Shown here: in pieces, positions 3,001 through 36,337 of the stretch
Layout: every line of letters starts with the position of its first letter
How positions within the stretch are numbered: position 1 is the first letter of the stretch
Assembly (NCBI GenBank): GCA_022703585.1
Contig: JAKLDJ010000005.1
Location: 5,353-69,352 of the forward strand
DNA from: Candidatus Omnitrophota bacterium
Lineage (GTDB): Bacteria; Omnitrophota; Gorgyraeia; Zapsychrales; JAKLDJ01
Direction of reading: 5' to 3'
DNA: 64,000 nt
The notes under the pieces: model-generated
Seen by the model: the letters and a program-made list of their open reading frames with translations, nothing else
Databases searched by the model: none
Told to the model about the DNA's origin: nothing
Made by a program: the position numbers and the translations under genes

Positions 3001-4197
3001 ATCCGCCCCTCGGCCTCCGCTCTGCTGTTCGGCAAATCGCGCGTCCGCAGGAATATCCCAGGAAGAATCCAATTCAAAACCTTTCGTACCGTCCTGGTAA
3101 GTAAATGTCGTCTCCGGCAATGCCGTAACCCCATCTGCACCGTACTGTCGGACTGATGTCAACAACGTCCGGCCGGTTACGCCGCTATAGCTATATCCTA
3201 AAACATAACGTCCTTGCAAAACCTCTCCGACATACGATGAGATTTGGGAGATTCTTTTGCGCGTTCCAACAAGAAAACGAGTCCGGTAAGACGACACCAA
3301 ATCATTTCTGTCTTCGAGGTCAAACCGGAGGCTGGCAAAAGGCTGCAGCCCCGTGGCGGAATTGCCGGTATAATCAATGCGCTGCGGATAAAGTTGCTGC
3401 TGGTCCTTAAGATACGTAACCGTCATATAATTACCGCTTAGATCCTCCACTCTGTCTAAACACCACTTAAAAATATGACTGCTGTCTGCCGGATCTGCCT
3501 GCCGCGAATCATCGCTCTGCCCAAAATAATATTTAACCCCTTTTTTATCGGTAATAACCCAGCCGCCGGACAATAATTCTATTTTCATAAATGCGCCTTC
3601 GATCTTTGTCCGGTAAAAACCAGACGCCGTGTCGTAAACCAATTCCTGCATTGAGCCGGCCTGCGTGAGCACAAAGGTATCCGAGGCATTATATTGGGGT
3701 GCGCCCTTTTTCGTCGAGCGCTGGATATTGCCAAGTTCCAGAATCCATCCCATGCCGAGCAAGCCGCTGGAACTCGCGGAGCTGTAAAAAAGATTGACGC
3801 TGGGCTGAATACCTGCCCGGCCCGCGGGCACAGCAATCGGGACCGACAAGGCAGCACTTCCGGTTGAAGAATCGACCTCGACACGGCTGGTTGAGGCAAA
3901 GAGAGCGCGAAAATCGATCGCCGCGTTCTGTGCTGAGGCCGGAATTACACCGGATTGCGAGCTCTCCGCAGCCTGACCTTCCTGAGAAACAGCATTATTA
4001 GAAGAAGATAGAACTTCTTCGGATGCCTGTTGCGAATCTCTGTCAGGATTAACAGTTTTTGTATGCGAATCAGGGCTTTCTTTTTGAATTAGTCCCGGGG
4101 GTTCTTCGGCGCACAGTACAGGCAGATGACAAAACGGAAAATTTAATAAGAATAACGAAAGAAATAGTCCGGATACAGAAAATATTCTTCGGCGCAT
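1..4197 (-). CDS. RHS/YD-repeat toxin-like protein (Tc-toxin TcB/TcC-like architecture), N-terminal ~1399 aa; C-terminus lies beyond window start
   Basis: Manual translation of the minus strand gives a continuous ORF from ATG at 4197 to the window edge. It has an N-terminal signal peptide (MRRRIFSVSGLFLSLFLL). A SpvB-like segment follows (PSVNLFYSSASSSGLLGMGWILELGNIQRSTKKGAPQY). Then come several FG-GAP/VCBS-like repeats (DVNADGYPD, DINGDGWVD, DLNGDGLLD, DINGDGLSD, DANADGMADF), then classic YD repeats (YDAMGRAIQTT, YDYLGRKV, YDALNRLT, YDDDAVPGSKGRLTQAEY). It is absent from the ORF track only because it lacks a stop within the window. Confidence 0.85.
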   Translation of the reverse strand, partial: MRRRIFSVSGLFLSLFLLNFPFCHLPVLCAEEPPGLIQKESPDSHTKTVNPDRDSQQASEEVLSSSNNAVSQEGQAAESSQSGVIPASAQNAAIDFRALFASTSRVEVDSSTGSAALSVPIAVPAGRAGIQPSVNLFYSSASSSGLLGMGWILELGNIQRSTKKGAPQYNASDTFVLTQAGSMQELVYDTASGFYRTKIEGAFMKIELLSGGWVITDKKGVKYYFGQSDDSRQADPADSSHIFKWCLDRVEDLSGNYMTVTYLKDQQQLYPQRIDYTGNSATGLQPFASLRFDLEDRNDLVSSYRTRFLVGTRKRISQISSYVGEVLQGRYVLGYSYSGVTGRTLLTSVRQYGADGVTALPETTFTYQDGTKGFELDSSWDIPADARFAEQQSGGRGADLGVRIADVNADGYPDILKYHEYNGGPQTRKTFLHNKDKAWVQSGDWNFPGNLAVFQNTSGEIDREWGVRVADINGDGWVDLVRYFQRDPYWGGIQVSNEVYISNKSNGWVYDPDWMMPYRQNPPQDPWYDPLPITLERGQPVYGYHEFWGSVLADVNADGYEDFIRSKEDAGYSSHYTFLNAMPGGSKGWQRNSTWDTPVSVYADFERGSTLVDLNGDGLLDIFYRKDGTAAVYINTGAGWAGGLGSSWEDTFGYGDLVDGSTQFADINGDGLSDLIIATDTQHVTLINTGHGWIRDSGWDLTGGANFKNYGTRLLDANADGMADFIIHWNGNTPQMYINKGKAPDLLVEAHNGAGAMTSIEYEPSTHYQNDFLPFPIQTVKTTTLSDGFGHSYITHYVYANGLWNTQEREFRGFGFVRVQDDEGNYSNTYFLQDDIYKGRVERQESYDMNGNLYGKVVNSWDYQEIAPGINFVFLQQKDNFIYDGDITGKRTQEQYFYEESPQNGNLTKAVSLGEVDLDTGEDVASDSRSVETEYLGNDSNWINGLPKQVTVKNHSGEMVRQSRFYYDGHQNIDDLPVKGFLTKKTDWSGSNVNPTVSFAYDEYGNLISTSDALQHVTTTDYDSDYHMFPLAVTNALNHQAVNEYYGVNGVPLDSGDGFHGLWGQLKSTTDPNNKKGRKSYDVFGRVVATVSPLDSIEYPTSTVEYQFSDDHAMVTTHQREKSGQVGTIDSVQFYDGLGRLIQTKSESATPGEFTVGGQTEYNSRGLPVKKYFPFFSTNPINSIDPINPNNPHATITYDAMGRAIQTTNSDGTYVTAIYDDWTSTTIDENGHKQKSYADAYGRLIKKEEYFGTDGRSPHYPASSYTLYATTLYAYDSEGNLTQTQDAHGNITTITYDYLGRKVSMNDPDMGFWQYGYDAAGNLTQQTDAKNQVMEFHYDALNRLTNKNDGGNFNVDYTYDDDAVPGSKGRLTQAEYSLSDKTRFSQYDDLGRELESVKT

Positions 4198-4310: not shown

Positions 4311-5000
4311 AGGGACGCTCTTTTGGCGCTATTGAAGTCTGTCCCATCCTTCAGATACTGGGGACAGACTTCCGATCAACCGAAAGAGCGTCCCTGATCC
4401 CAATGAGCCCTGGAACATCCAGCGAATTTAAAAGCTCGTCATAAACACCCGATACTCTCAGTCGATAACTACTCCATTGATAATCTGATGCTGATTGAAC
4501 AATTTCGGCCCGTACGGGATTCTGCTCGATATACTCAATGCAACCCAGAAAATAGTCCTCCGAACTTATTGCCATACTTTTGAAACGTCCCTGCCATAGA
4601 TGGCCGCAGGTATGATGTCGGGCATTAAAATATAATGCGTAAGACTGATCCAATCCTTGCATAAATTTTGGTAGATCCCTGACGACACATGGTTTCACCA
4701 ATAAATGGACATGATTTGGCATCAGACAATAGCCAAATAGAAGAACTTTAAACTTCATCTTATATCTTCTCAGCAATCTCAGGTAAACCTCATAATCTTG
4801 GCTAACCTTAAATACATTTTGTTTCTGGTTACCCCTGGACATAATGTGATAGAAATTATTTTCGGGTAAAAATCGTGCAGTCCTCGGCATAACTTCTCCT
4901 CTGTATTCTTCAGGGACGCTCTTTTGGCGCTATTGAAGCCTGTCCCATCCTTCAGATACTAGGGACAGACTTCTGTTCAGCATAAAGAACGTCCCTGATA
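4311..5000 (-). mobile_element. IS200/IS605-like REP-RAYT unit: tyrosine transposase flanked by two ~88 bp near-identical structured repeats
   Basis: Near-identical direct repeats at 4311-4398 and 4912-5000 (AGGGACGCTCTTTTGGCGCTATTGAAG..CTGTCCCATCCTTCAGATACT.GGGACAGACTTC...AAGA.CGTCCCTGAT). Each contains nested palindromes (GGGACGCTCTTT/AAAGAGCGTCCC and GTCTGTCCC/GGGACAGAC). They bracket a Y1-HUH transposase gene. Confidence 0.7.
4351..4890 (-). CDS. REP-associated tyrosine transposase (RAYT) / IS200-family TnpA-like Y1 HUH transposase
   Basis: 179 aa. It has the HUH motif (NHVHLLV) and a downstream conserved Tyr region (QWSSYR), typical of the IS200/RAYT family. The 3' end of the ORF lies inside the flanking repeat. 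Confidence 0.7.
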   Translation of the reverse strand: MPRTARFLPENNFYHIMSRGNQKQNVFKVSQDYEVYLRLLRRYKMKFKVLLFGYCLMPNHVHLLVKPCVVRDLPKFMQGLDQSYALYFNARHHTCGHLWQGRFKSMAISSEDYFLGCIEYIEQNPVRAEIVQSASDYQWSSYRLRVSGVYDELLNSLDVPGLIGIRDALSVDRKSVPSI

Positions 5001-5633: not shown

Positions 5634-5713
5634 CGCTCCCTACCTCCTTTTTTGGTTGGCCTGCAGCTATTAGTAAATTATTAGTCGCCTGGCACCAGTG
5701 ACCAGTCGCCAGT

Positions 5714-6067
5714 TTATAGCTTTTTAATAAGACTCAAAATCATCCGCATCTCATAAATTACAGAATCCACTAATGGTCTGCTATTAACTTCGGACAAATA
5801 CTGCCGTTTTCCTGAAAGAATAATCTGGGTTTCAAGCTCAGCGCAGGATCCCAAAGAAATATACAGAAACTGTGTATACTCCTTCGTGTGATGACGCACA
5901 AAACCCTCGGCAATATTCGACGGGATTGAAACGGCTGCCCGACGCATTTGAGTCGTTAAGATAAATAGCTCGCTTTTGGGATATTGATCAGTAAAAAAAT
6001 AGATTTTTTCAGCAATCTCTATTCCTTTTTGCCAAATTTTTAAATCTTTGTAATCCTTAACTTTCAT
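5714..6067 (-). CDS. Four-helix-bundle protein, Avd-like / 23S rRNA intervening-sequence protein family (TIGR02436/PF05635-like)
   Basis: 117 aa. It carries the family core LKIWQKGIEIAEKIY...QMRRAAVSIPSNIAEGF...FLYISLGSCAELETQII. It is flanked by inverted repeats at 5681-5713 and 6088-6117. Confidence 0.8.
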   Translation of the reverse strand: MKVKDYKDLKIWQKGIEIAEKIYFFTDQYPKSELFILTTQMRRAAVSIPSNIAEGFVRHHTKEYTQFLYISLGSCAELETQIILSGKRQYLSEVNSRPLVDSVIYEMRMILSLIKKL

Positions 6068-6084
6068 TGTTTTCCTTCCATTTT

Positions 6085-7680
6085 TTACTGGTCACTGGCA
6101 ACCGGCGACTGGCGACACACCTCAATTCTTCTCGAAAACTCCCCACCCGTAAACCCGTCAATCAAAGCCGTTAACTCCTCAACCCGCATTTCTTTATCCT
6201 CGCGCTCCTGGGTCCCAAGAGAGAGATCCCGGACAAGATCGGCCTGCAACCGGCGCCGTTCAAAATAAAGCCTCGTCACTTGGTCTAAAATGTCTTCCCT
6301 TAACTCAACCATCAATTTCGAGCGCGAATCAATAGACGTTTGTTCAGAGCTCCAAACCAATTCCGCTATATCCCATTTAAGGTTAACTCCCCAATCCTGA
6401 GGCCCAATAGCCGTCCGGTCATAAGTCGATCCCAGCGCCGTCGTCACCGTCTTATCAAAATCCAAACTGACCTCGGGCATCAAGGCCCTGGCCTGCGCCA
6501 ATCGCCTCCAATTCCGTATCTTATCGGCACCCACTTCCGCATACGCGATTGCCATTCTGTGAACCTCGCGAATAGACGGTTCATCCGCCCAATACGCATT
6601 CGCCGGACTTGTCATTGCCGCTACGCCGTCGGGCAACGTTTTCTTCGGCTTCATTAGAAAAATCCCTTTATCTGTCGCGGCATATAAATGATTTTCTTCA
6701 TCACACGCCAAAAAATTGACCTTACTTGTTTCCATCCCTCCATAGATATGTTCCCATCCGTCCTCCGTTTCTATGAAGACTCCTTTTTGCGTGCCCAAAA
6801 CAATCTCGCCTTCCCTTAAAACCGTCAAGGATGTCGCGCTTTCAAGCGGCAGGCCGTCGACATCAATCTCTTCCCAGAATTTTCCTTGGTTGGAGCTGTA
6901 AAAAATCCCTTTTGTTGTCGCCACATACAACTCAGATTTCCTTTTATTGGTCGCAACCAGGGAGAGAATTTGCTTTTTATAGATTGAGGCATCTTCTCCT
7001 TCAGTCTCTTGGGTCTCGGCGCCATTGCCGTTAAGCTCGCCTCCCATAACGCTAAAAATCTCCAAAATTTCCTGGCTCTTCGGGTCTATCCGGAAAATTT
7101 TGTTTTCTGTCGCCGCGTAAATATACGTTCCATCTTCAGCTAAAAAGGCGACGGCTTTACTGTTTAAATCACCTTGGGCCCTGCTCCAAACCGGGCCGTC
7201 AATGGTTTTGTAAAAAAGACCCCCGGCTGTTGCCAGATAAACCGTGTTTTCATCCTCAATAACCCACAGACAGCGGCGTTCACGGCTATCATTGGAGAAC
7301 AATATTCTTTTCCATGCCCCGCCGTCATTCGTGCTTAGAAACAGACCGGAATCGGTCGCGGCATAAATGACAGAATCCCTGACCGGGCTCGCATAAAGAT
7401 AATTAACTCTGCGGGAAGCCCCAGATGCCTGCAGAAGCGCTTGCGCCACGCTTCCTTTATATGGAGATAAAACCCGGTACGCCGACTTTGTCGTGCCGAC
7501 AAACATGCCCTGAGGGCGGCCCTTCGGGCCGCCCTCAGGCGCAAACGCCACACACGTCACCTCCGGCTCGGCAATACCCGACCCGATCTTTTCCCATTCA
7601 TAATGACTCCAGGCGAAATTCAGATTCAACACCCCCAGCACCAAAATCATCCCTACTTTAAGACCGCCATACTTATCCAT
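6085..7680 (-). CDS. Secreted BNR/Ycf48-like beta-propeller repeat protein with C-terminal coiled-coil
   Basis: 531 aa with an N-terminal signal-like segment. It has repeated motifs YAATDSGLFLSTNDGGAW, YAATENKIF and YAATDKGIF, typical of BNR/Ycf48-like repeats. Confidence 0.55.
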   Translation of the reverse strand: MDKYGGLKVGMILVLGVLNLNFAWSHYEWEKIGSGIAEPEVTCVAFAPEGGPKGRPQGMFVGTTKSAYRVLSPYKGSVAQALLQASGASRRVNYLYASPVRDSVIYAATDSGLFLSTNDGGAWKRILFSNDSRERRCLWVIEDENTVYLATAGGLFYKTIDGPVWSRAQGDLNSKAVAFLAEDGTYIYAATENKIFRIDPKSQEILEIFSVMGGELNGNGAETQETEGEDASIYKKQILSLVATNKRKSELYVATTKGIFYSSNQGKFWEEIDVDGLPLESATSLTVLREGEIVLGTQKGVFIETEDGWEHIYGGMETSKVNFLACDEENHLYAATDKGIFLMKPKKTLPDGVAAMTSPANAYWADEPSIREVHRMAIAYAEVGADKIRNWRRLAQARALMPEVSLDFDKTVTTALGSTYDRTAIGPQDWGVNLKWDIAELVWSSEQTSIDSRSKLMVELREDILDQVTRLYFERRRLQADLVRDLSLGTQEREDKEMRVEELTALIDGFTGGEFSRRIEVCRQSPVASDQ

Positions 7681-8761: not shown

Positions 8762-8811
8762 GCAAATTTAAGGGTAGTACGGGTTGGAGGGGGCATTAAG
8801 GGTTAGTAGGG

Positions 8812-9225
8812 GTGAGACGGAACAACCATTGGCTCGGAGACACAACGGAAAAAATGGAAAAAGAACCGGGATATAAAAATCTCATCGTTTGGAAGAATAC
8901 ACGCACATTAAGAGGTCTCATTTACCAGATGTGCAAAGGGTTTCCTCAGGCAGAGATGAGACGTTCAAGCCAGATGAGAGATTCGGCGAGATCGGTCAAA
9001 CAGAATATTCAAGAAGGTTACGTAAAATCACTGCCTTCCTACATCAATCATCTCAATATTGCCATGGGTTCGCTGTCGGAATTGCGAGGCGACATCGACG
9101 ATTGTCTTGAAGATAGGTTGATTACCAAAGAAAATTTCTTGTCTATTAATGAATTGGCCGGAAAGACAGAATATCTTTTAAAACGGTTGATTCAATCATT
9201 GATTCGAAAGAGGGATAGTCGATGA
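8812..9225 (+). CDS. Four-helix-bundle protein, Avd-like / 23S rRNA IVS protein family; true start probably the internal Met near 8854
   Basis: It carries NLIVWKNTRTLRGLIYQMCKGFPQAEMRRSSQMRDSARSVKQNIQEGY...SLSELRG, matching the family pattern. The first ~14 codons of the annotated ORF lie inside the upstream inverted repeat. Confidence 0.7.
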   Translation: MRRNNHWLGDTTEKMEKEPGYKNLIVWKNTRTLRGLIYQMCKGFPQAEMRRSSQMRDSARSVKQNIQEGYVKSLPSYINHLNIAMGSLSELRGDIDDCLEDRLITKENFLSINELAGKTEYLLKRLIQSLIRKRDSR

Positions 9226-9271
9226 ATTTCAAACCCATACTAACCCCTACTATCCCATTTTACCCCCTTCT

Positions 9272-9311
9272 GCCCCCTTCTGCCCCCTTCTGCCCCCTTC
9301 TAACCCCTAAA
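9272..9311. repeat. Tandem decamer CCCCCTTCTG x4 inside the right inverted-repeat arm of the Avd cassette
   Basis: Direct reading: cccccttctgcccccttctgcccccttctgcccccttct. Confidence 0.9.
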
Positions 9312-9789: not shown

Positions 9790-9990
9790 TAAATCACTTA
9801 TATAGAAACATAAGGTTATTGTGTTTATTGGGTTCCTTGAGTTTATAGGGTTCCCGTCTAAAACATTTTACTGCGCGTAATAACTCAATGAACCCAACCC
9901 AATGAGTTCAAATAACCCAAAGAACTCAATAAACCCAATAGCCCAATAAACTCAATGGACTCAACAAACCCAACAACCATCCAAAGACCA
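9790..9990. repeat. Cluster of short dispersed repeats of the AACCCAATAAAC/TCAAT family, both orientations
   Basis: GTTTATTGGGTT ... GTTTATAGGGTT ... AACCCAACCCAATGAGTTCAAATAACCCAAAGAACTCAATAAACCCAATAGCCCAATAAACTCAATGGACTCAACAAACCCAACAACC. The same family occurs at 600-660 and 42340-42460. Confidence 0.8.
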
Positions 9991-11675
9991 TGATTCACTT
10001 AAATCCGTTTGCGATCGCAAACCTTATTATCGCTATTACATATTTTCCGCTTTTCATACTTATTGCCATCAAAGGGAAAACAAGAATAGCAAGAGTCTAT
10101 TCCCTTCACATTCTCGCGATATGCCTCTGGGGTATCGGCGCTTTCCTGGGTGGCATAAACCAGAACCAAGCAATTTCGATTAATCTATGGAAATTTGCAT
10201 ATTCCGCAGTAATCTTTATACCCATTTTCTTTCTTCACTCTGTATTGATTTTAACAAAAAGAAATTCGAGATTCTTGATTACGCTAATATATATTCAAGC
10301 CATTTACTTTCTTTGGGAAGCCCAGAGCGGTGGCATGTTTTCTTCTGTAAGACTTGTTTTTAATTCATTCTATTACGTTAATGGAAAAATCATCTATCTT
10401 TACTCATTTATCTCTTGGGTAGTTACAGTTTCATTCGCTCACCTGCTACTTATTCAATATTATAAAACTAGCTATCCGGGACAAAAAGAACAAATTGCCT
10501 CTTTAATACTCGCAATCATAGGTTTCTTAGGCGGTGCCATGAACTTCTTGCCAGGCTTCAATATAAATATCTACCCACACGGGAATCTTCTTGTGCCCAT
10601 CCATTCGATTATCGTTACCTACGCAATTCTAAAACACCAATTATTAGATATCATCGTCGTAATCAAGAAAAGTCTAATTTATTCAATTCTAATCACCTCG
10701 ATTACGGTCACTTACTTAATTTTAGTTATTTTATCAGAGAGACTACTCCAGGGAACCATCGGCTATCAATCACTCCTCGTAAGTGTTGGCATCGCTTTCT
10801 TAATCGGACTTGTATTTAGTCCCCTGCGAAATAAAATTCAATATTTCGTTGATAAATACTTCTTTAAAGGCACCCAAGCCCAAATCGCAGAGGAAAATGA
10901 ACGCCTGCGACAAGAAGTTGCCCAGGCTGAGAAGCTTAAAACCGTCGCCACCTTGGCCAGCGGCATGGCTCACGAAATAAAAAATCCGCTGACGGCGATA
11001 AAAACTTTCGTCGAATACCTGCCCGAGCGAAAAGACAACCCCGAATTTCTCGATAAATTCACACGGATCGTCGGAGCAGAAGTTGACAGGATTGACGGCC
11101 TGGTTCACCAATTGCTGGAATTTGCCAAGCCCTCTCCTCTTGCCTTAAAAGAAACTAATATCCATCAATTAATAGACGAAACCTTAAGCCTTCTTAATAA
11201 TCAACTTGTTCAGCATAAAATTGATTTAATCCGAGACTATAATGCCGACCGCGACCAGACATTAAATATTGACCCCAATCAAATACGTCAGGCGCTTTTG
11301 AATATTTTTCTAAATGCGATCGAGGCGATGAAATACGGCGGGACGCTTCGCGTGCAGACTGAAGACTACAGACTAAAGACTAAAGACCAAAGCTCGCAGA
11401 AGTCTTTGGTCTCTGGTCTTCAGTCTGGGGTCCATAAAGGCTTCTTAAAGATAACAATTTCCGACACCGGCTCCGGCATACACCCTAAGGACCTGCCTCA
11501 CGTTTTCGATCCCTTCTTCTCAAAAAAAGATCACGGCACCGGCTTAGGGTTAGCCATTACGCACGGGATTATTCAGGAGCATGGGGGGAAAATTAAAGTT
11601 GAGAGTGAGTTGGGGAAAGGAACAGAAGCTATTCTAGAGTTGCCGATAATTGGCAGTGAAGAAAATAAGGGATAG
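9990..11675 (+). CDS. Sensor histidine kinase with N-terminal 7TM sensor domain (HisKA_7TM-like), HisKA and HATPase_c
   Basis: 561 aa. Multiple TM helices carry the motif YAILKHQLLDI shared with the two other kinases. H-box MAHEIKNPLTAI; N/G boxes NIFLNAIEAM, ISDTGSGI, GTGLGL. Confidence 0.85.
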   Translation: MIHLNPFAIANLIIAITYFPLFILIAIKGKTRIARVYSLHILAICLWGIGAFLGGINQNQAISINLWKFAYSAVIFIPIFFLHSVLILTKRNSRFLITLIYIQAIYFLWEAQSGGMFSSVRLVFNSFYYVNGKIIYLYSFISWVVTVSFAHLLLIQYYKTSYPGQKEQIASLILAIIGFLGGAMNFLPGFNINIYPHGNLLVPIHSIIVTYAILKHQLLDIIVVIKKSLIYSILITSITVTYLILVILSERLLQGTIGYQSLLVSVGIAFLIGLVFSPLRNKIQYFVDKYFFKGTQAQIAEENERLRQEVAQAEKLKTVATLASGMAHEIKNPLTAIKTFVEYLPERKDNPEFLDKFTRIVGAEVDRIDGLVHQLLEFAKPSPLALKETNIHQLIDETLSLLNNQLVQHKIDLIRDYNADRDQTLNIDPNQIRQALLNIFLNAIEAMKYGGTLRVQTEDYRLKTKDQSSQKSLVSGLQSGVHKGFLKITISDTGSGIHPKDLPHVFDPFFSKKDHGTGLGLAITHGIIQEHGGKIKVESELGKGTEAILELPIIGSEENKG

Positions 11676-11760
11676 CAGGGGCTAGTAGGGGGCAGTACGG
11701 GATAGTAGGGGTTTAAGAAATCCCTTCCTAACCCCTCCTATCCCTTTCTACCCCTTCCCA
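11676..11760. repeat. Cargo-less inverted-repeat pair related to the 8762-9260 Avd-cassette ends
   Basis: GCTAGTAGGGGGCAGTACGGGATAGTAGGGGTT ... AACCCCTCCTATCCC. The arms are adjacent with no gene between them. The sequence resembles GGGTAGTACGGG..GGGTTAGTAGGGG at 8772-8816. Confidence 0.6.
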
Positions 11761-11782
11761 CCCCTTTGATAACAATACTCAC

Positions 11783-12961
11783 TTAAATCCTCCCCGCCTC
11801 ACGCAACTCCACAATCGCCCTTACAGCAAGCGGATTAAACTGTAGCCCCGAATTTCTTTTAATCTCTTCCATCGCCACTTCCTTCGGTAACGCCGCCCGG
11901 TAAGGCCGATCGGTGGTCATGGCATCAAAGGTATCCGCGACCGCGATAATGGCGGCGGCAATCGGAATATCCTCAGCTTTTAGCCCATACGGATAACCCT
12001 TACCGTCGTAGCGCTCGTGATGATATCTGACACCGTCTAGGGCATCCTTAAACTCAGCGATATGCTTTAATATCTCAAGGCCCCGTTGGGGGTGTTGCTT
12101 CATAATAGTGTATTCCTCATCGGTTAATTTCCCCGCCTTCCTCAAGATGATCTCGGGGATACCGATTTTTCCGATATCATGCAAAAGGGCGGCATTCTGC
12201 AGGTTCTCAAAAAACTTATGCGGAAAACGGGCGGTCTGATTGGCATTCATCTGATGGGCGATTGCTAAAGAAAATTGTGTCACCCGCTCAGTATGGCCCC
12301 GGGTATATTCGTCTTTGGCTTCAATAGCCGAGGTAAGCGCTAAGGTTGTCGAAATAAACAGCTGACGGTTACGCTCGGCCTCTTTCTTTAAGTCCTCAAT
12401 AAGCTGCGCGTTTTTAATCGCCATTGCCGTATCCGAGGCCAGTGCCGAGAAAAAGTCCAACTCCTCCTGATCAAAACCCGTTCCGTCACTTTTTTCTCCC
12501 AGCAGCAAAAGCGCCAAAAGCGTATCCCTAAAATACGCCGGCACGCAGGCAACAGCATTAAACATATGCATCTGCTCGTTAACCTTGTGCAAAAGATCCC
12601 GAACATCCTCGCCGTTACTAATAATGCTCTCCTGCCAAATCATGGTCTGGATATCCGTCGACATCAGCGCTGAATGGTTGGGCGGTAAATTCTTATATTT
12701 CACATGGGAAAATAACTTGATCAACGGACTGTCTTTGCCAAAACGCGCAAAACCCGCAGGGATCTTAACCCCCATCTCTCCGTGCGAAATCGAGACAACA
12801 TAGCCGTCCTTATGAGGGTCATAGAGAATCATCGCCGCGTGCTTAATCTGGACTTTACGCACAATCATGCGGACGATAAGCTTGATCAGCGTCTTGGGGT
12901 CATGAATAAGGATCATGCCCTTGCTGGCGCCTTCGAGTTCTTTTTTGTAGTTCAGTTGCAT
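11783..12961 (-). CDS. GAF domain-containing HD-GYP phosphodiesterase (cyclic-di-GMP)
   Basis: 392 aa. The C-terminal HD-GYP signatures are LLHDIGKIGIP and HHERYDGKGYPYGL. The N-terminal half is GAF-like. Confidence 0.8.
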   Translation of the reverse strand: MQLNYKKELEGASKGMILIHDPKTLIKLIVRMIVRKVQIKHAAMILYDPHKDGYVVSISHGEMGVKIPAGFARFGKDSPLIKLFSHVKYKNLPPNHSALMSTDIQTMIWQESIISNGEDVRDLLHKVNEQMHMFNAVACVPAYFRDTLLALLLLGEKSDGTGFDQEELDFFSALASDTAMAIKNAQLIEDLKKEAERNRQLFISTTLALTSAIEAKDEYTRGHTERVTQFSLAIAHQMNANQTARFPHKFFENLQNAALLHDIGKIGIPEIILRKAGKLTDEEYTIMKQHPQRGLEILKHIAEFKDALDGVRYHHERYDGKGYPYGLKAEDIPIAAAIIAVADTFDAMTTDRPYRAALPKEVAMEEIKRNSGLQFNPLAVRAIVELREAGRI

Positions 12962-13022
12962 GGAATTTTACCGTTAATCAACACAGATTAACACAAATTG
13001 AAACAGATTTTCACAGATAAAA

Positions 13023-13415
13023 TCACTCGCATCGATCATAGATGCGCCGTCTGATATCTATAGATTCATTGCCGAAGTTAACCAAATAGCCTAGCTTGTA
13101 CTCTGTGCCGCTTAAGTAATAGAAAAGCTGTTTTTCAAATACTTTCGGAAGATTCAGCAAGGATTTAATTTCAACAATAATTTTGTCATCGATGACAAAA
13201 TCCGGCTCATAAACACCTACATGTTTCCCGTGAAATCGGATTTTAATTCTCGGCTTATCAACATATTTTATCCCACGTTCTTCAAAGCATATTTTGAGAG
13301 ATTCGTGATAAATTTGCTCCTTATGTGCCGGACCGAGCTCGTTATAAACATCATAAAAACACCCAACCAGCTTATACGACAATTCCTTATGCGGAAAATG
13401 CTCTACTTTTGCCAT
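13023..13415 (-). CDS. GxxExxY family protein (PD-(D/E)XK-like, TIGR04256-like)
   Basis: 130 aa. It has the GxxExxY signature YNELGPAHKEQIYHESL followed by EPDFVIDDKIIVEIK (a PD-ExK-like DxxxxEIK). It is flanked by long inverted repeats at 12973-13018 and 13420-13464. Confidence 0.65.
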   Translation of the reverse strand: MAKVEHFPHKELSYKLVGCFYDVYNELGPAHKEQIYHESLKICFEERGIKYVDKPRIKIRFHGKHVGVYEPDFVIDDKIIVEIKSLLNLPKVFEKQLFYYLSGTEYKLGYLVNFGNESIDIRRRIYDRCE

Positions 13416-13492
13416 AGTAATTATCTGCGAAAATCTGTTTAGATCTGTGAATATCTGTGTTAGTTAACGCTTCAATTTAAAACTTAACACAC

Positions 13493-13852
13493 TCAGCGTT
13501 TTAGTTCAGCAAGGACAACCTTCTCCAATTCCTCCAAAACCAGCGGCTTGTGGACATATCCAAGAACACCCAAATCATTGGCTTCCTTGATCGATTCTCC
13601 GTTTTCGACGCCCGTGACCATGATTACCTTAACGGAATTACTTTTGGCGCGCAAATCCCTCAAAACCTCGAGGCCGGTCATCTCTTCCATACGCACATCT
13701 AAAAGCACTAGGTCGGGTTTTTCCTTTTCGATGATCCCAATCGCCTCTTTGCCGCCGGAGGCGGTCAGGACATCAATATTGCGCTTCCTAAAGAAATTCT
13801 TGGCAAATTCACGGATATCAACCTCATCATCGACAATAAGCAATTTAGACAT
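13493..13852 (-). CDS. Single-domain response regulator (CheY-like receiver)
   Basis: 119 aa; it has LLIVDDEVDIREF, LLDVRMEEMTG and KVIMVTGV...GYVHKPL. Confidence 0.85.
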   Translation of the reverse strand: MSKLLIVDDEVDIREFAKNFFRKRNIDVLTASGGKEAIGIIEKEKPDLVLLDVRMEEMTGLEVLRDLRAKSNSVKVIMVTGVENGESIKEANDLGVLGYVHKPLVLEELEKVVLAELKR

Positions 13853-13882
13853 GTTTATTCCTTAGGGTATAGGGGTTAGGGT

Positions 13883-14266
13883 TTAGCGTTTAGAGTCCAT
13901 CTTGTTCTGTAATCGCAAAATCATGGCACTCAGCATTTTCAGTATTTCTGTAAGTAAATTATCAATCCGTTGATAATCTGCAGCAACAATAAATTCCAGA
14001 CGCTTTGCTATAATCAATTGCGTCTCAAGCTCAGAGGCAGAACCTTTTGCGATATATAAAAATTGAATATATTCTTTTCGATGATTGCGCTGATAGCCTT
14101 CCGCAATATTTGAAGATATCGCAACAGCTGAACGACGCATTTGCGAAACAAGACCGTATAGTTCATCATGTGGCAATTGCCGCGTTAGCCTATACACATC
14201 TAAGACTAATTCGACCGATTTCTGCCATACAATTAAATCTTTATGCGACTGAATTTTCTCGCTCAT
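13883..14266 (-). CDS. Four-helix-bundle protein, Avd-like / 23S rRNA IVS protein family
   Basis: 127 aa. It carries LIVWQKSVELVLDVYRLTRQLPHDELYGLVSQMRRSAVAISSNIAEGYQRNHRKEYIQFLYIAKGSASELETQLIIA. It is flanked by inverted repeats at 13861-13882 and 14286-14314. Confidence 0.85.
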   Translation of the reverse strand: MSEKIQSHKDLIVWQKSVELVLDVYRLTRQLPHDELYGLVSQMRRSAVAISSNIAEGYQRNHRKEYIQFLYIAKGSASELETQLIIAKRLEFIVAADYQRIDNLLTEILKMLSAMILRLQNKMDSKR

Positions 14267-14317
14267 TACCCTTAATTCCCTGATCTCTTCTGTCCCCTAA
14301 ACCCTATACCCTATCCC

Positions 14318-16492
14318 CTAACTGACTATCGGCAATATAATCGTAATCAACGTCCCGGTCATATACTCCGATGACATCGCTACTTTTCCTTTGTGGTTCT
14401 CTTCGATGAGTTTCTGGATCACGTAAAGCCCTAAACCCGTTCCTTTTTTGCTGGAAAGTTTGGTGGTAAAAAAGGGCGTGAATATTTTGTCCTGATCATT
14501 GTCTTTTACTCCGATGCCATTGTCGAGGACACTAATCTGCAATATCCCCTCTTTCTTCTCGGCCGCAATTCTTAAGGTGGGCTTATAATTGGGTTCATTC
14601 TTTTCATTCTTGCGCTGCATAAGGGCATCATGGGCATTATCAATAAGGTTAAAGAAGACTTCCTGCAGCTGGGTAAAATTGCCATGGATTTTGGGAAGCA
14701 TCTGGGCGGAATAATCTTTGACAATAGTAATCTGTTCCAGCTTAACCTTATATTGGGCCATTTCGATGGAAGCGTTGACAAGTTGATCAAAATCAACCGG
14801 GCCAAAACCGGCCTCACCTTTGCGAGTGTACTTTAAAAGCCCCTGGACAACTTCTCCGCCCTGCTTAACATTATCCTGGATTCTTACCAAAGCGCGCTGC
14901 ACCTCGTCGATAAGCTCTTTGGCTTCAGGAGAAACAACTGTCCCTCCTTTTAGCTTAATAGAGTCCAACGCATCGCCGGCAATAAACCCGAGCGCATGCA
15001 GGCGATTGTTGATCTGATGCGAAAGTCCGTCGGCCATGGTACCAATGGTAGCCATTTTTTCGGCTTGAAAAAGCTGCTCCTGGGTGCGCTTGACGTCCTC
15101 GTAAAACTGGGCATTCTCGATTGCCAACGCCGCCTGATTAGCCAGAATGGAGAAAACGGACAGATCGTCTTCGCTATATAATTTACCCGATAGTTTGCGG
15201 CCGAGCACAACAATAGCCAGAAGTTTTTGCTCGATAAAGCTTGGAACCACAACCGCGGCGTCAAGTTCGCGCAAAGCAGATTCCACCAGAATCAGTTCCT
15301 GGTCCCGATAGTCCTGGGTGCGTTGCTTGATTTCTTCATAGACAATAGGCTCTTTCACCTTAAAGAGATACCTGGTCAAAGGCGAGGTGTACTCAACGGC
15401 GCCTTTACTCTTTGGCTTGCCTCTGTTTCGGGACGCCTCAATAAAATATTTCTTTTCAGAATCATCATAAAGATAAATCGAACTGTGCTCCAGGTGAACG
15501 GTGCGGGTCACGATATAGACAATCAAATTCATCAATTTCTTTAAATCTTTAACCCTGCCCATACCCAAAGAAGCCTGGCGCAAGGTTGCCTGGTAACGCT
15601 TTTGCTCCTGGAGAAGCCGGTTTTCTGCTTTTTTCTGAATGTACAAATAAATAAACGGCCCGGCGGTGGCGAGAACGGTGGAGCTGACGAGGGGAACAAT
15701 CCACCACTTTTCTCCAATTAAAGCTGCTAACCATTGTTGGCAACCGAAAGCTAGAGCAAAGGGAATGCCGAGGACAACACCGTAAACTGCGACAAAAATG
15801 CCCGTACGAGTAATGGCAACTGAAATATCTAGAAGTCGATATTTAATAATCGCATATGTGAAAACAAAAACAACACAAATCATATTAATATATCCAAAGG
15901 GATATATTTCAAAACCATATTTACCAAAATAATCCACACTGGCTCCCGAGCCAATTAAATAAGCGATAAAAACATATTTAAGCTGATTCCGTTTCAGCAA
16001 AGTTAAGGTTTTATTGTTTTTTAAAGTAAAGAAAACAAGAAGGCTGGCATAAGAATATACTCCGAAGAAATAAATTAAGAAGGGATGGTAAAGAATTGCT
16101 GCCTGGGGATAATACCCCCAAAAGTACTTATGTACATGAGAAAAAAACAAGTCAGTCCTGCTTAAAATTAAGAATATTCCTGCCAAAACATAAAAAAAGG
16201 TCAAAGTTTTTGGTTTCTTTAAGTTTAAAAGACTTATTGCAATCTGGAAGTTAGCGATTGGGATAAAAATAATTCCGAAATAACTAGTCCTGGCCCAGAA
16301 AATGGCTTCATCAGGATTACGAGCCGAATAACATGCGGAATATGAGTAATGCCATATAGCAATGCATAGACATAAGCCCGCGAGCGAGAAATTTGAGAAT
16401 GATCTTTTAATTCTAAATGAAACAAAGAAACCTAAGAATAGCGATAGAGTCGCAGCAACAGAAGGCAATAAATAATATATTGAATTAACCAT
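14318..16492 (-). CDS. Sensor histidine kinase: 7TM sensor domain + GAF + HisKA + HATPase_c
   Basis: 724 aa. The 7TM N-terminus has YAIIKYRLLDI. The central part is GAF-like. H-box LSHQINNRL; N/G boxes NLIDNAHDA, DNGIGV, GTGLGL. Confidence 0.85.
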   Translation of the reverse strand: MVNSIYYLLPSVAATLSLFLGFFVSFRIKRSFSNFSLAGLCLCIAIWHYSYSACYSARNPDEAIFWARTSYFGIIFIPIANFQIAISLLNLKKPKTLTFFYVLAGIFLILSRTDLFFSHVHKYFWGYYPQAAILYHPFLIYFFGVYSYASLLVFFTLKNNKTLTLLKRNQLKYVFIAYLIGSGASVDYFGKYGFEIYPFGYINMICVVFVFTYAIIKYRLLDISVAITRTGIFVAVYGVVLGIPFALAFGCQQWLAALIGEKWWIVPLVSSTVLATAGPFIYLYIQKKAENRLLQEQKRYQATLRQASLGMGRVKDLKKLMNLIVYIVTRTVHLEHSSIYLYDDSEKKYFIEASRNRGKPKSKGAVEYTSPLTRYLFKVKEPIVYEEIKQRTQDYRDQELILVESALRELDAAVVVPSFIEQKLLAIVVLGRKLSGKLYSEDDLSVFSILANQAALAIENAQFYEDVKRTQEQLFQAEKMATIGTMADGLSHQINNRLHALGFIAGDALDSIKLKGGTVVSPEAKELIDEVQRALVRIQDNVKQGGEVVQGLLKYTRKGEAGFGPVDFDQLVNASIEMAQYKVKLEQITIVKDYSAQMLPKIHGNFTQLQEVFFNLIDNAHDALMQRKNEKNEPNYKPTLRIAAEKKEGILQISVLDNGIGVKDNDQDKIFTPFFTTKLSSKKGTGLGLYVIQKLIEENHKGKVAMSSEYMTGTLITIILPIVS

Positions 16493-18542: not shown

Positions 18543-20234
18543 TCAGTTCTTTGGCAACTCAATGGTAAACTTCGTCCCTTCACCCAATTTACTTTCCGCC
18601 GCTATTGTTCCACCGTGTAATTTAATAATCTCCTGCGTAATACTAAGTCCTAAGCCGATACCGTCTCGTTTGGTCGTATGGAATGGCTCAAAAAGTTTCT
18701 TGAGGTTTTCGGGAGAAATGCCGCAGCCATTGTCAGCAATTATTATCCTGACATAATCTCTGCGGACTTGAGACTCAAGACCAAAGACTAAAGACTTTTG
18801 GTCTGCGCTCGTTGGTTTTTGGTCTTTAGTCTCTGGTCTCTGGTCTGTGGTCTGAACAAAAAGCTCTCCACCCTCACCCATCGCCTGGATAGCATTAAGG
18901 AACAAATTTAAGAAAACCTGCTTGAGCTGTTCTTCATCTCCCTGAATAAGACCGTCAGGATCCTGATAGTCCTTTTTAATACTGATTTTCTTAAGAGCGA
19001 AGCTGTCCTGCAGCAATGTCAGGGTTGAGTCAATCAAAGCACAGACGTTAACCGGCTTTAAATCAACCTGCCGGGGCTTGGCGAGATTTAATAGTTGATT
19101 AATGACCTTCTCTATCCGTTCCACTTCTTTGGGGATTAACGTGTTAAATTTCTGCCTGAATTCTGCATCATGGTATTTTTGCGGTAGATAATCGAGATGT
19201 GTCTTAATAGCAGTTAAAGGATTCCTGATTTCATGGACAATTGAGCTGGCCAGTTGTCCCACATAGGCGAGTTTCTCTTTGTGAAAGAGCTCCTGCTGAA
19301 GCCGACACCGTTCCTGGTCAAGGCTTTCTAGGGTGCCCTGAAAAAACCGCTTATCTAGTATGTGCTGGATCCAATCTCGCAATGGATAAAGCAATGCTGC
19401 AATAATAAACACGGCAAATAAATTAGAAAAAAACGATTGATAGCCAACCATGCCTTGAAATAATTTTCCTACGCTAACAACAAAGATGAGATAACCTGCT
19501 GTAATAATCGCTAGCAACGCCGAATAAACCAATCCTTTCTTAATAATAATGTTAATATCCATCAGCTGATGCTGCATTATTGCATAAGTTATAATCAAAG
19601 GATATACTGCAAGAAAGAAATACGGGTAGGGATACACCTCAATCCTAAACGCAGAGGGAAAAAAACTATGCGGACCAATCCATCCAATTATCGATGCAAT
19701 AATAAAGTATTTCATTTGCATCCGCCTTATTCCTGAGCTATGTCTGAAATCAACAAGCATGAGAAATAACGTGTACAAAAGTAGAATCCAGTAAAAACCT
19801 ATATAAAAAACTAAAAAGATCGGACTTTTATACTTAGGCCAATCGAAACAGTAGAATTGCCCAAAAACTAATCTTAAGTCTCCGAAAAATAGCTCCCTTT
19901 TCGTAAGAATAATCGCAAAGAAAAAGAATGCCAGAGCATAAACTAAAGCAATTAAATTCTTTTTCTTAAGATTGATGAATTTGCAAATAAAATGAAAAAA
20001 TATAGCCGGACAAAAAACTCCACCGATATATGCAAATTGCCACCAGAAGAAAGCTATTTCCTTAGATTGCGTTGTAGAAAATTTGTATGCTCCAAATCCC
20101 CAAATTGCACTGCCTATGCTCATTAAAATCCATGTTTTTGTTAGTTTTCGATCGCCACTCTTAAAAAGCATTAACACTGCCATCATTAAATTAGCAATAA
20201 AAATCAATATAGACGAAATCGCAAAGGCGTTCAT
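18543..20234 (-). CDS. Sensor histidine kinase with 7TM sensor domain; likely starts at Met 20234, overlapping the fabF stop as ATGA
   Basis: 7TM region with YAIMQHQLMDI; H-box VHEIRNPLTAI; NLFLNAIQAM, DNGCGI, GIGLGL. The ORF track start at 20258 would overlap fabF by 28 nt. The internal ATG at 20232-20234 overlaps the fabF TGA at 20231-20233. Confidence 0.8.
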   Translation of the reverse strand: MNAFAISSILIFIANLMMAVLMLFKSGDRKLTKTWILMSIGSAIWGFGAYKFSTTQSKEIAFFWWQFAYIGGVFCPAIFFHFICKFINLKKKNLIALVYALAFFFFAIILTKRELFFGDLRLVFGQFYCFDWPKYKSPIFLVFYIGFYWILLLYTLFLMLVDFRHSSGIRRMQMKYFIIASIIGWIGPHSFFPSAFRIEVYPYPYFFLAVYPLIITYAIMQHQLMDINIIIKKGLVYSALLAIITAGYLIFVVSVGKLFQGMVGYQSFFSNLFAVFIIAALLYPLRDWIQHILDKRFFQGTLESLDQERCRLQQELFHKEKLAYVGQLASSIVHEIRNPLTAIKTHLDYLPQKYHDAEFRQKFNTLIPKEVERIEKVINQLLNLAKPRQVDLKPVNVCALIDSTLTLLQDSFALKKISIKKDYQDPDGLIQGDEEQLKQVFLNLFLNAIQAMGEGGELFVQTTDQRPETKDQKPTSADQKSLVFGLESQVRRDYVRIIIADNGCGISPENLKKLFEPFHTTKRDGIGLGLSITQEIIKLHGGTIAAESKLGEGTKFTIELPKN

Positions 20235-23666: not shown

Positions 23667-23745
23667 ATTTGAGCTTTCAGTCGTCAGCCATCAGCCTTCA
23701 GCATCTGTCAGCTGATAGCTGACAGCGGATAGCTGACAGCTCTTC
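23667..23745. repeat. Palindromic intergenic repeat of the GCTTTCAGC/GCTGAAAGC/CAGCTGATAGCTG family
   Basis: GAGCTTTCAGTCGTCAGCCATCAGCCTTCAGCATCTGTCAGCTGATAGCTGACAGCGGATAGCTGACAGC. Confidence 0.8.
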
Positions 23746-24740
23746 TATAATAAATGCCTCGAAACTTCTTCGATGATACTGGCGTTGATTTTATGCTCAA
23801 CTTCTCTTTTGGTCGCCCGGATGGCGTTTTTGATCGCCTTGGGGGAAGAGCGGCCGTGGCTGATCATGACAATGCCGTTAACACCCAACAGAGGCGCGCC
23901 GCCGTATTCGGAGTAATCGGCATATTTTTTGACATGATTGAGGCGGGATTTCATCAACATCGCCCCCAAAAGGGCGATGGGGCTTTTTTTAATTTCTCGG
24001 CGCAGCAGCGTTGAAGCAGACTCCATAAGGCCTTCGGAAACCTTGATCATGACGTTGCCGACAAAACCGTCGCAGACAATACAATCGCATTTGCCGGAAA
24101 ATATCTCGTTGGCTTCGACGTTTCCAATAAAATTTGATACCTGTTCGGAGAGAAGTTTATGCGCTTCTTTGACAAAATCGCTCCCCTTGCTCTCTTCCTC
24201 TCCGATATTAAGAATCCCGACAGAAGGCTCCGTAAGGCCCAAGACCTTTTGCGCGTAAGTTTTTCCCATAATGGCATACTGCAGAAGATGCGCGGGTTTG
24301 GGCTCCGTATTGGCCCCAACATCGATAAGAAAACCGAATCGTTTTAAATTTGGTAAAACAAGGCCGATGCCCGGGCGCTCAACACCCGGCAATAGCCCCA
24401 AACCTATCGTCGCGGCACACACCACCGCGCCCGTATTGCCGGCGCTAACAAAAGCGTCATACGAACTATCTTTTAAAAGATTAACGCCCAGCGTAATAGA
24501 AGAATTCTTTTTCTTGCGGATACTGACAGTGGCGTGCTCATCCATCCCGATCACTTCGGGGGCATGGATGATTTCGATCGAATCGGAAGGATACTTATAC
24601 TGGCTTAATTCTTTCTTTATCTGGTCTTCAAGTCCAATCAAGACTATTTTGACACCCAGTTCTTCAATGGCCTGAATGACACCGGCAATAACTGCCTTGG
24701 GGGCGTAATCACCGCCCATGGCATCGACGACGATTCTCAC
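23745..24740 (-). CDS. plsX: Phosphate acyltransferase
   Basis: 331 aa; MRIVVDAMGGDYAPKAVIAG ... ISHGRSSPKAIKNAI are typical PlsX ends. Confidence 0.85.
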   Translation of the reverse strand: MRIVVDAMGGDYAPKAVIAGVIQAIEELGVKIVLIGLEDQIKKELSQYKYPSDSIEIIHAPEVIGMDEHATVSIRKKKNSSITLGVNLLKDSSYDAFVSAGNTGAVVCAATIGLGLLPGVERPGIGLVLPNLKRFGFLIDVGANTEPKPAHLLQYAIMGKTYAQKVLGLTEPSVGILNIGEEESKGSDFVKEAHKLLSEQVSNFIGNVEANEIFSGKCDCIVCDGFVGNVMIKVSEGLMESASTLLRREIKKSPIALLGAMLMKSRLNHVKKYADYSEYGGAPLLGVNGIVMISHGRSSPKAIKNAIRATKREVEHKINASIIEEVSRHLL

Positions 24741-24751
24741 TTTTAACTCCT

Positions 24752-24822
24752 TTTAGCTCTCAGCTTTCAGCTATCGGCTTTCAGCAGCTTTCAGCTGATA
24801 GCTGACGACTGAAAGCTGACGA
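24752..24822. repeat. Palindromic intergenic repeat of the GCTTTCAGC/GCTGAAAGC family
   Basis: AGCTCTCAGCTTTCAGCTATCGGCTTTCAGCAGCTTTCAGCTGATAGCTGACGACTGAAAGCTGACGAC. Confidence 0.8.
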
Positions 24823-25029
24823 CTACCCAGGTCTCTTCTTCTTTTCCTTCGGGGCCGCAATTTCTACAACGAGTTTACCCTTATAATGCCCGCAATAGGC
24901 GCAGACACGATGAGGAAGAATCGCTTTCTTGCACTGAGGGCAAATCGACATGGCCGGCACCGCGATCTTCCAGTGCGTGCGGCGCTTGCGCCCTCTGCTT
25001 CTTGAATGTTGCCGTTTTGGTAAAGGCAT
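24823..25029 (-). CDS. rpmF: 50S ribosomal protein L32
   Basis: 68 aa. The N-terminus is PKRQHSRSRGRKRRTHWK and the CxxC...CxxC zinc ribbon is CPQCKK...CAYCGHYKGK. Confidence 0.85.
   Translation of the reverse strand: MPLPKRQHSRSRGRKRRTHWKIAVPAMSICPQCKKAILPHRVCAYCGHYKGKLVVEIAAPKEKKKRPG

Positions 25030-33364: not shown

Positions 33365-36337
<2,973 letters not shown>

Follow-up and report, generated by a model that had tools for sequence, protein, structure and literature searches.

A GxxExxY nuclease gene between inverted arrays of an eight-nucleotide motif, a candidate mobile cassette at an operon junction in Omnitrophota

The DNA analyzed here is a stretch of 64,000 nt (the window, to which positions given without a locus label refer) from a metagenome-assembled Candidatus Omnitrophota genome (100% identical to ENA ERZ795054 NODE_619), and our subject is a small gene of the GxxExxY family that lies between the genes of a CheY-like response regulator (RR) and a GAF/HD-GYP protein, enclosed by two arms of an inverted repeat (Table 1). 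The unit made up of gene and arms is co-oriented with both neighbors and occupies the entire spacer between them: the upstream arm is separated from the start codon by 5 nt, and the downstream arm begins 2 nt past the stop codon and ends 2 nt ahead of the HD-GYP start. According to the inverted-repeat search of the window, the arms are 57 nt long, 400 nt apart and 79% complementary, with about one position in five mismatched. When one flank was aligned to the reverse complement of the other, the Smith-Waterman score was 27, compared with 7.5 ± 1.3 for 2000 dinucleotide shuffles of the flanks (z = 15.6), none of which reached 27. The first-pass annotation of this DNA had described a near-perfect inverted repeat of about 45 bp; the repeat is real, far from chance, and the arms noted then lie inside the 57-nt arms, but at 79% complementarity it is not near-perfect.

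Table 1 Positions of the GxxExxY cassette, its operon neighbors and gene-less hairpins in the window
Feature	Positions	Strand	Basis
Upstream arm (gene orientation)	13421-13477	minus	Inverted-repeat search; four forward motif copies and outer extension
GxxExxY cargo gene, 130 aa	13023-13415	minus	ORF; TIGR04256, PF13366 PDDEXK_3
Downstream arm (gene orientation)	12964-13020	minus	Inverted-repeat search; four inverted motif copies and outer extension
CheY-like response regulator (RR), host gene upstream of the insertion	13493-13852	minus	ORF and profile match
GAF/HD-GYP protein, host gene downstream of the insertion	11783-12961	minus	ORF and profile match
TIGR02436 sister cassette, one gene upstream, same operon	13862-14321	minus	Gene 13883-14266; arrays 13862-13893 and 14295-14321
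Gene-less hairpins	11667-11766, 23672-23741, 24750-24824, 44402-44479, 46775-46855, 9814-9978, 42362-42461, 630-670

Each arm is built from about four tandem copies of a 10-nt unit with the core ACACAGAT. On the plus strand the downstream arm reads CACAGAT (12982), CACAAAT (12992), AACAGAT (13002) and CACAGAT (13012), and the upstream arm reads ATCTGCG (13423), ATCTGTT (13433), ATCTGTG (13443) and ATCTGTG (13453); read on the minus strand, the latter are CACAGAT (13453), CACAGAT (13443), AACAGAT (13433) and CGCAGAT (13423), spaced 10 nt apart. The outer extension of the upstream arm (CGTTAAC..AATT) also pairs with the downstream arm. A two-copy pattern of the ACACAGAT type matches six times in the 64-kb window, always within the two arms, with 0.21 matches expected. 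The region 12964-13477 is a single inserted unit, a promoterless single-gene cassette that rides a host operon.

The sole open reading frame (ORF) of the cassette encodes a 130-aa protein that matches TIGR04256 GxxExxY (E = 3e-30; 104.8 bits, cut-off 35) and PF13366 PDDEXK_3 (E = 4e-31; 108.3 bits, cut-off 22) and no other family; NCBI, too, lists it as GxxExxY in an Omnitrophota metagenome-assembled genome. Residues D72, E82 and K84 of the PD-(D/E)XK core are invariant across 30 relatives, and the AlphaFold model (pLDDT 82.6) predicts the PD-(D/E)XK fold; the structures closest to the model are lambda exonuclease, Cas4 SSO0001 and RecB-type nucleases, at a TM-score of only about 0.5, and a sequence search against solved structures returned no matches. 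Judged by the invariant residues and the predicted fold, the protein is predicted to be an active enzyme. A profile search of 1.84 billion representatives gave 12,087 members of the family (PF13366/TIGR04256, about 12,000 clusters at 50% identity). Tandem two-domain forms of 250-280 aa also exist (P0129 and about 30 other representatives), which suggests that the working unit is a dimer. Carriage of GxxExxY by phages is not supported, because viral contigs held no relative and a phage collection only a haloarchaeal virus nuclease with 31% identity. The search of PADLOC defense profiles produced one match at the level of noise (E = 0.0098), and that of PHROGs nothing meaningful. In the sole survey that lists PF13366 its function is given as unknown (PMC3424549), and full-text literature searches returned no account of flanking repeats or mobility for GxxExxY.

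Species-representative genomes were scanned with the alignment of 30 relatives, which yielded 33 loci spanning Omnitrophota, Auribacterota, Brocadiaceae and other Planctomycetota, Spirochaetota, Elusimicrobiota and Endomicrobiales. In nearly all of 31 loci the heptamer C[GA]C[AG][GA]AT stands in forward copies before the gene and in reverse copies after it, typically at -26, -16, -5 and +5 from the called start and at -9, +1, +12 and +22 from the stop, and such inverted arrays abut the start and stop codons in relatives from at least six phyla. Across 222 units the base preceding the heptamer is A in 71%, and the three positions following it carry about 0-0.1 bit of information; the arm word is the 8-mer A-C-R-C-N-R-A-T, present in the window as four copies per arm, 10 nt apart. 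Successive copies are spaced by 10 nt in 89 cases, by 11 nt in 21 and by 12 nt in nine. In the sub-clade with CGCAGAT, the third and fourth copies make up the start codon and first residues of the protein (ATG GTC GCA GAT, MVAD), and the first downstream copy supplies the last residues and the stop (..TCT GCG TAA). Ten or more bacterial phyla or candidate phyla have the short motif alongside genes of the GxxExxY family.

When the arms were set in register, motif columns agreed at 249 of 273 positions (91%), whereas columns of the 2-4-nt spacers agreed at 44 of 139 (32%), close to the 27% expected from composition (z = 1.2). In a formal pair count over nine canonical arm pairs, motif positions almost always paired, whereas at spacer positions four to eight of the nine sequences were unpaired (six to eight at seven of the nine spacer pairs); two-sided changes were limited to the variable motif positions. 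The same majority 7-mer occurs on both arms in 21 of 29 cassettes, compared with 4.7 expected and with none of 10,000 permutations. Mismatches within the motif show no bias toward G-U on the sense strand (15 versus 9, with 15 transversions; p = 0.31), and an Rfam scan of the cassette returned no matches. A control that joined the upstream arm of one locus to the downstream arm of another could not serve as a null, since the motif is common to all loci; it was this failure that exposed the conserved motif. The arms co-vary as eight copies of one word and not as a continuous helix. The co-variation of the arms, which the first-pass annotation had proposed as a test of selection on an RNA stem, thus does not favor a selected continuous stem, since co-change is confined to the motif of 7-8 nt. 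Homogenization by slippage would have copied the spacers as well, and has not, which suggests that selection acts on the word itself. That the arms are sequence-specific motif arrays can be stated with considerable confidence.

Within the fetched loci, flanking inverted repeats with z ≥ 4 were found at 22 of 31 GxxExxY genes and 16 of 21 TIGR02436 genes, but at only three of 82 size-matched response-regulator control genes. GxxExxY paralogues on one contig carry distinct words: CGCAGAT and ACGCTAAA in L007, CACGAAT and ACGGATT in L013, and CGCAGAT and ACGCGGAA in L002; a relative in L086 that is 68% identical to the second copy of L007 again has ACGCTAAA. Since each paralogue in a genome retains a word of its own, the motif is more likely read by the nuclease of the cassette itself than by a host factor that all cassettes share. 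Inverted motifs (CGCGAAG, CACAGAG or CACGGAT) are kept even in distant relatives from Sphingomonas, Bernardetia and Treponema with 26-37% protein identity. In Sphingomonas parapaucimobilis (26% identity), CGCGAAG occurs twice upstream and CTTCGCG twice downstream of a gene inserted between fabD and fabG; Bernardetia has CACAGAG arrays, and Treponema saccharophilum a single ACACGGATTCG on either side. The flanking repeats of distant members from Fusobacteria and Persicobacter are direct, not inverted.

Cultured bacteria (L115-L120) have the gene wedged, co-oriented, between unrelated operon genes, which in Bernardetia encode adenine deaminase and mannose-1-phosphate guanylyltransferase. On a Gemmatirosa kalamazoonensis plasmid (L117, ~1100-1760) a complete hairpin of AGGACTGAAG 10-mers comes after the GxxExxY gene, and a 16-nt direct repeat on either side of the whole unit, ACACGTACGTGGAGCC, may be a target duplication.

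To collect orthologous loci, metagenomes were scanned with the N-terminal part of the HD-GYP protein, which gave 80 loci at 56-78% identity, 72 of them with both gene ends visible. The RR/HD-GYP junction is bare, with a spacer of about 10-30 nt, in 42 of these 72; 22 contain an insert of 45-200 nt that lacks an ORF and in most cases consists of hairpins of unrelated tandem units, five a TIGR02436 cassette, two a small GIY-YIG gene between hairpins resembling repetitive extragenic palindromes (REP), and one a GxxExxY cassette. Further GxxExxY cassettes at this junction are those of L095 (only the 3' half on the contig), L007, L013 and the window, and in four of these five cassettes the HD-GYP gene starts 3-6 nt beyond the outermost copy of the motif. 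In L036, the closest relative with the junction on its contig (HD-GYP 78% identical), the junction holds another hairpin and lacks the cassette. At the kinase/regulator junction there is a TIGR02436 cassette in the window, a 40-nt spacer in L013 and another TIGR02436 gene with AATGWCA arrays in L007, and at the cupin/regulator junction the window has a TIGR02436 gene where L013 has a GxxExxY gene. As one orthologous junction can hold nothing, a hairpin or any of three types of cargo, the cassettes are insertions that share sites. The initial proposal that GxxExxY is a second cargo of the same arrangement of inverted repeats around a small gene is supported.

The GIY-YIG genes at the RR/HD-GYP junction (L079 and L091, 2110-2497) lie in a 388-nt insert, encode a nuclease of about 95 aa and are placed between GTCATTCCCGAA...TTCGGGGGTGAC hairpins; the same hairpin, ORF-less, fills the junction in L043, L044, L046, L058, L060 and L064.

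The GxxExxY clade of the window comprises 21 copies in 15 gene contexts, with identities of up to 83% across contexts, 61-69% at the RR/HD-GYP junction and 61-84% among all same-context pairs. Gene and arms were thereby shown to have been inherited and relocated together, and we have little doubt that the cassette is an inserted mobile unit. The gene is co-directional with its upstream neighbor in 25 of 26 loci and with its downstream neighbor in 26 of 27, and the gaps to the neighbors contain little beyond the arms. A Shine-Dalgarno-like tetramer precedes the start in five of 31 GxxExxY genes versus 51 of 82 regulator controls and 15 of 21 TIGR02436 genes, and the window gene has no such sequence upstream. 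A scan for promoters and terminators gave counts at chance level, with no excess. The cassette is promoterless and dependent on transcription of the operon, and its translation is probably coupled to that of the gene ahead of it.

Gene-less and decayed copies accompany the filled cassettes. A solo in L006 (1826-1903) consists of the upstream arm including the start ATGGT, then TT, then the downstream arm; its arms are those of a filled cassette 1 kb away on the same contig, and the spacers of the two upstream arms are identical. L009 has three solos and one filled cassette within 6 kb, and in L011 (1731-2010) about 60 N-terminal codons are left before the sequence runs straight into the downstream arm. 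The arm pairs of solos fold as long hairpins (z = -7 to -9), and in the window cassette the arms pair with each other over the ORF in the minimum-free-energy fold (-155 kcal/mol, z = -5.8). A further solo hairpin of the GxxExxY type (L033, 1141-1238) includes, within the downstream arm, a nested second palindrome, TGCCTGCCTGCCGGCAGGCAGGCA, which is perfect. In L026 (5420-5848) about 290 nt with no obvious ORF lie between CGCGGAT/ATCCGTG arrays of 9-nt period, and this stretch may be non-coding cargo.

The GxxExxY domain is also found embedded in frame in RecG, GatB, LepA and LeuRS (P0124, P0126, P0127, P0128, P0133, P0152 and P0166). The peptides that flank it there are translated arms, with TQxDADx repeats upstream and xSA downstream, and CGCAGAT arrays are present in the DNA that encodes the RecG of a bacterium of the Candidate Phyla Radiation (CPR) related to Andersenbacteria (L121, 1501-4221). 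Three RecGs, mutually 42-43% identical, share one exact insertion point for the cassette, between DEQHRFGV..R and PHLLSMTATPIPRT, with inserts that are 53-68% identical; the RecGs nearest to the carrier P0128 (64-68% identical) have no insert. Homing elements are distributed in this way; filtering for loops that tolerate an insert could have helped to shape the pattern. No intein, intron domain or RNA family was detected in the in-frame carriers or the cassette, including no Hint domain. Next to each end of the RecG insert of L121 (~2870-2895 and 3385-3420), the flanking host sequence occurs as a short duplication in inverted orientation: AAGCAAAG-ACAAG-CTTTGCTT at one end, GCAAGTGAGG-CAATCTGTG-CCTCACTTGC at the other. 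The mechanism of insertion could have left this footprint, or it could be coincidental.

On balance we favor the reading that the cassette is a promoterless mobile element riding host operons, with arms that are recognition sites, probably for its own nuclease. The repeated motif would be a putative protein recognition site, most probably for the PD-(D/E)XK nuclease of the cassette acting as a dimer or higher oligomer, and would be read either as inverted arrays on double-stranded DNA or as the eight-bp helices of the paired arms; the target would be double-stranded in both cases, because the inverted arrangement makes sense only then. Nuclease and arms may promote spread at the DNA level through cutting at or between the arms and repair that copies the cassette in, as in homing, or alternatively through excision and insertion, as in transposition. 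Expression would depend on read-through transcription, probably with translational coupling to the upstream host gene, and in the transcript the arms could pair and loop the gene out, which may limit harm to the operon.

That mobility at the DNA level is driven by the cassette's own nuclease is a narrower claim, which we put forward tentatively. The most far-reaching version strikes us as rather unlikely: GxxExxY cassettes would be an unrecognized class of autonomous mobile elements, in which a 130-aa nuclease reads 4+4 phased cognate 8-mers and drives insertion at operon junctions as well as in-frame insertion into conserved genes, across ten or more phyla or candidate phyla. The cassettes with TIGR02436 or small GIY-YIG cargo would then be parallel classes in the same niche. 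In a variant of this scheme, suggested by analogy with the archaeal splicing endonuclease, the nuclease may cut the paired arms in RNA, and the cassette would be a protein-dependent intron.

Several observations weigh against the favored reading. TIGR02436 cargo shares the design and is no enzyme, so mobilization could depend on a host factor for all cargos. The arms in the window pair well when folded as RNA. Spacings of 10 and 11 nt add up to 21 nt, or seven codons, a period that may serve to hold the frame open through the arms, which weakens any argument from the helical phasing of DNA. Relative to L007 and L013, the window sequences are 66% and 60% identical for GxxExxY, 70% and 65% for the RR, and 65% and 54% for HD-GYP; the cassette has diverged about as much as its neighbors, and movement must therefore be rare and the gene long kept by selection, a retention also compatible with a domesticated function. 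Slower evolution of a small domain could account for part of the higher identity of the RecG inserts. No target-site duplication is visible at the window, L007, L013 or the RecG ends, where filled and empty alleles are too diverged to fix the borders.

The strongest rival, to which we assign a minor share of the probability, places the element at the level of RNA, like the intervening sequences (IVSs) of rRNA: the arms would pair, and the stem would be cut by RNase III or the GxxExxY nuclease, or the gene looped out. The folds described above, across the ORF in the window and in the solos, fit this reading, as do the almost invariable co-orientation of cassettes with their operons and the co-variation of motif positions between the arms, and there is precedent in the 23S IVS of Coxiella (PMC4990558) and in the TIGR02436-family and GIY-YIG ORFs of CPR rRNA insertions (PMC11270868). 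The arms themselves speak against it, however. Their spacers are mostly unpaired, with complementarity at chance, their mismatches lack the sense-strand G-U bias, and all four helix segments keep one sequence that is conserved across phyla, a sameness that structure alone would not need. The in-frame insertions in protein loops, with an open frame, suggest that the insert is translated and not removed, and cutting between cistrons would leave both ends of the host mRNA exposed. RNA-level and DNA-level readings are not exclusive.

It is improbable that the gene is instead a long-resident host gene, now immobile, whose protein binds its own operator arrays and controls itself or its neighbors. 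Such a gene would explain why the cassette is kept at one junction in genomes whose flanking proteins are 54-70% identical, with similar divergence, why the catalytic residues are conserved and why the motif is under sequence-specific constraint. It is at odds with a junction that is bare in most orthologous loci and, in L036, occupied by another hairpin, with a clade spread over 15 contexts, with gene-less solos and with in-frame copies inside unrelated housekeeping genes. A chance position of the gene between two hairpins of short tandem units, of which the window holds many from several unit families and which make PlsX appear bracketed by a 68-nt inverted repeat, was tested, not supported and is very improbable, since ACACAGAT-type arrays occur in the window at the GxxExxY gene only (six versus 0.21 expected), each cassette arm is half a hairpin and not a complete one, the same motif family flanks relatives in other phyla, and controls are bracketed far less often (3/82 versus 22/31).

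Against this background the preferred reading of an operon-riding mobile cassette can be set beside the other repeat-bracketed elements of the window. The sister cassette one gene upstream carries a TIGR02436 four-helix-bundle gene (13883-14266) flanked by inverted TTAGGGT heptamer arrays, and TIGR02436 genes (Avd-like, 23S_rRNA_IVP) are bracketed by inverted tandem-unit arrays at 13862-14321, 8781-9308 and 5683-6116, with the units TTAGGGT, the 10-mer CTACCCCCTT/GGGGCAGTAG and CCAGTSR, respectively. In other genomes the unit family tracks the protein lineage. One TIGR02436 lineage (L070 twice, L100, L088 and L096) has (C/T)AT(A/C)GAC units at two different junctions, and others have GATACCA, GAGACNN, AATGWCA, TTAGGGT or AGTCGCY. 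TIGR02436 arrays are mostly contiguous heptamers, with a period of 7 nt for most, versus 10-11 nt for GxxExxY; given that each lineage has its own cognate motif and that the periods differ, the common mechanism for both cargos suggested in the first-pass annotation is not shown.

Two paralogous histidine kinases of the window have an in-frame hairpin of AGACTAA-type heptamers (11355-11432 and 18765-18846) at the same HATPase_c site, translated as QTEDYRLKTKDQSSQKSLVSGLQSGV and TDQRPETKDQKPTSADQKSLVFGLESQV. The gene-less intergenic hairpins (Table 1) consist of tandem 7-, 9- or 10-nt units from several unrelated families. PlsX (23745-24740), considered as a third cargo, was rejected, its 68-nt inverted repeat being two complete hairpins of one family. 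A gene for a REP-associated tyrosine transposase (RAYT; NF047646, 4351-4890) lies between inverted 35-nt REP-like repeats GGGACAGACTTC... at 4311-4998, and the 23S gene (33370-36337) aligns end to end with the model, with no large insert.

For PF13366/TIGR04256, which is uncharacterized, the cassette offers a testable hypothesis, namely a nuclease with a defined 8-nt recognition motif in its own flanks; should the protein turn out to be a small nuclease with sequence specificity and a code particular to each lineage, the enzyme would be of practical interest. The cassette reading explains why GxxExxY genes sit between unrelated operon genes, as between fabD and fabG in Sphingomonas. It also bears on annotation: N-terminal extensions such as MVAD and C-terminal -SA tails are encoded by the arms, and oversized RecG, GatB, LepA and LeuRS proteins contain an inserted cassette. 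The same logic may account for TIGR02436 genes inside cas operons and rRNA genes; a picture of promiscuous cassettes fits the reports of TIGR02436-family genes between cas genes (PMC3936711) and of TIGR02436-family and GIY-YIG ORFs in CPR bacterial rRNA insertions (PMC11270868).

Among known systems, the ORF-bearing 23S IVSs of Coxiella burnetii and Leptospira come close (PMC4990558). In Coxiella a TIGR02436-family ORF with a poor Shine-Dalgarno sequence, preceded by tandem GACAGAT heptamers, lies inside a 28-bp terminal stem that is cut by RNase III (PMC4990558). The GxxExxY cassette is likewise an ORF-bearing insert with terminal inverted repeats able to form a stem, and the two kinds of element share an ORF of about 120-130 codons in the loop of the repeat, short tandem repeats of variable copy number in the arm by the start codon, a poor Shine-Dalgarno sequence, ORF-less versions and a sense orientation within a highly transcribed unit; the IVS protein family is, moreover, the cargo of the TIGR02436 cassettes of the window. 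Unlike an IVS, the GxxExxY cassette sits at an mRNA operon junction between two protein genes and not in rRNA, its cargo is a PD-(D/E)XK nuclease and not a four-helix-bundle protein, and its arms are interrupted 8-mer arrays with non-pairing spacers in place of a nearly perfect 28-bp stem. This lack of complementarity in the spacers argues against a continuous duplex.

Some homing endonucleases, such as I-Ssp6803I, belong to the PD-(D/E)XK group. Like homing endonuclease genes, the cassette has a small nuclease gene centered in a symmetric site, recurs at one position in the conserved RecG of distant hosts whose nearest relatives have no insert, and is more conserved than its host gene; its in-frame insertions resemble the locations of inteins. 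Unlike those genes, it shows no residence in an intron or intein, most of its copies are in many different intergenic junctions and not at one target, and it carries long repeat arms of its own.

With REP/RAYT systems, and with MITEs (miniature inverted-repeat transposable elements) and their parent transposons, the cassette shares a single gene between inverted copies of a repeat that also occurs gene-less, as intergenic hairpins of the same genome, together with variable presence at a site between genomes and deletion derivatives. It thus has the terminal inverted repeats, ORF-less derivatives and insertion polymorphism of such transposons and MITEs, but no transposase of a known class: the GxxExxY protein belongs to none of the HUH/Y1, DDE, serine and tyrosine enzymes, the arms are phased 8-mer arrays, and no target-site duplication was seen with alleles as diverged as these. 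Integron cassettes have a single 3' attC and are arrayed by an integrase, whereas the GxxExxY cassette is singly dispersed in operons and has two symmetric arms. Rickettsia palindromic elements are found in frame in protein-coding genes and are translated as extra peptide segments. The GxxExxY cassette also inserts in frame and is translated, but unlike these gene-less elements it brings a whole folded nuclease domain along with its arms. The GxxExxY element thus misses at least one defining feature each of IVSs, homing endonuclease genes, REP/RAYT systems and MITEs. It is akin to selfish nuclease or IVS-type cassettes and suggests a selfish element not described before; there is a real chance of its being a new class of mobile element.

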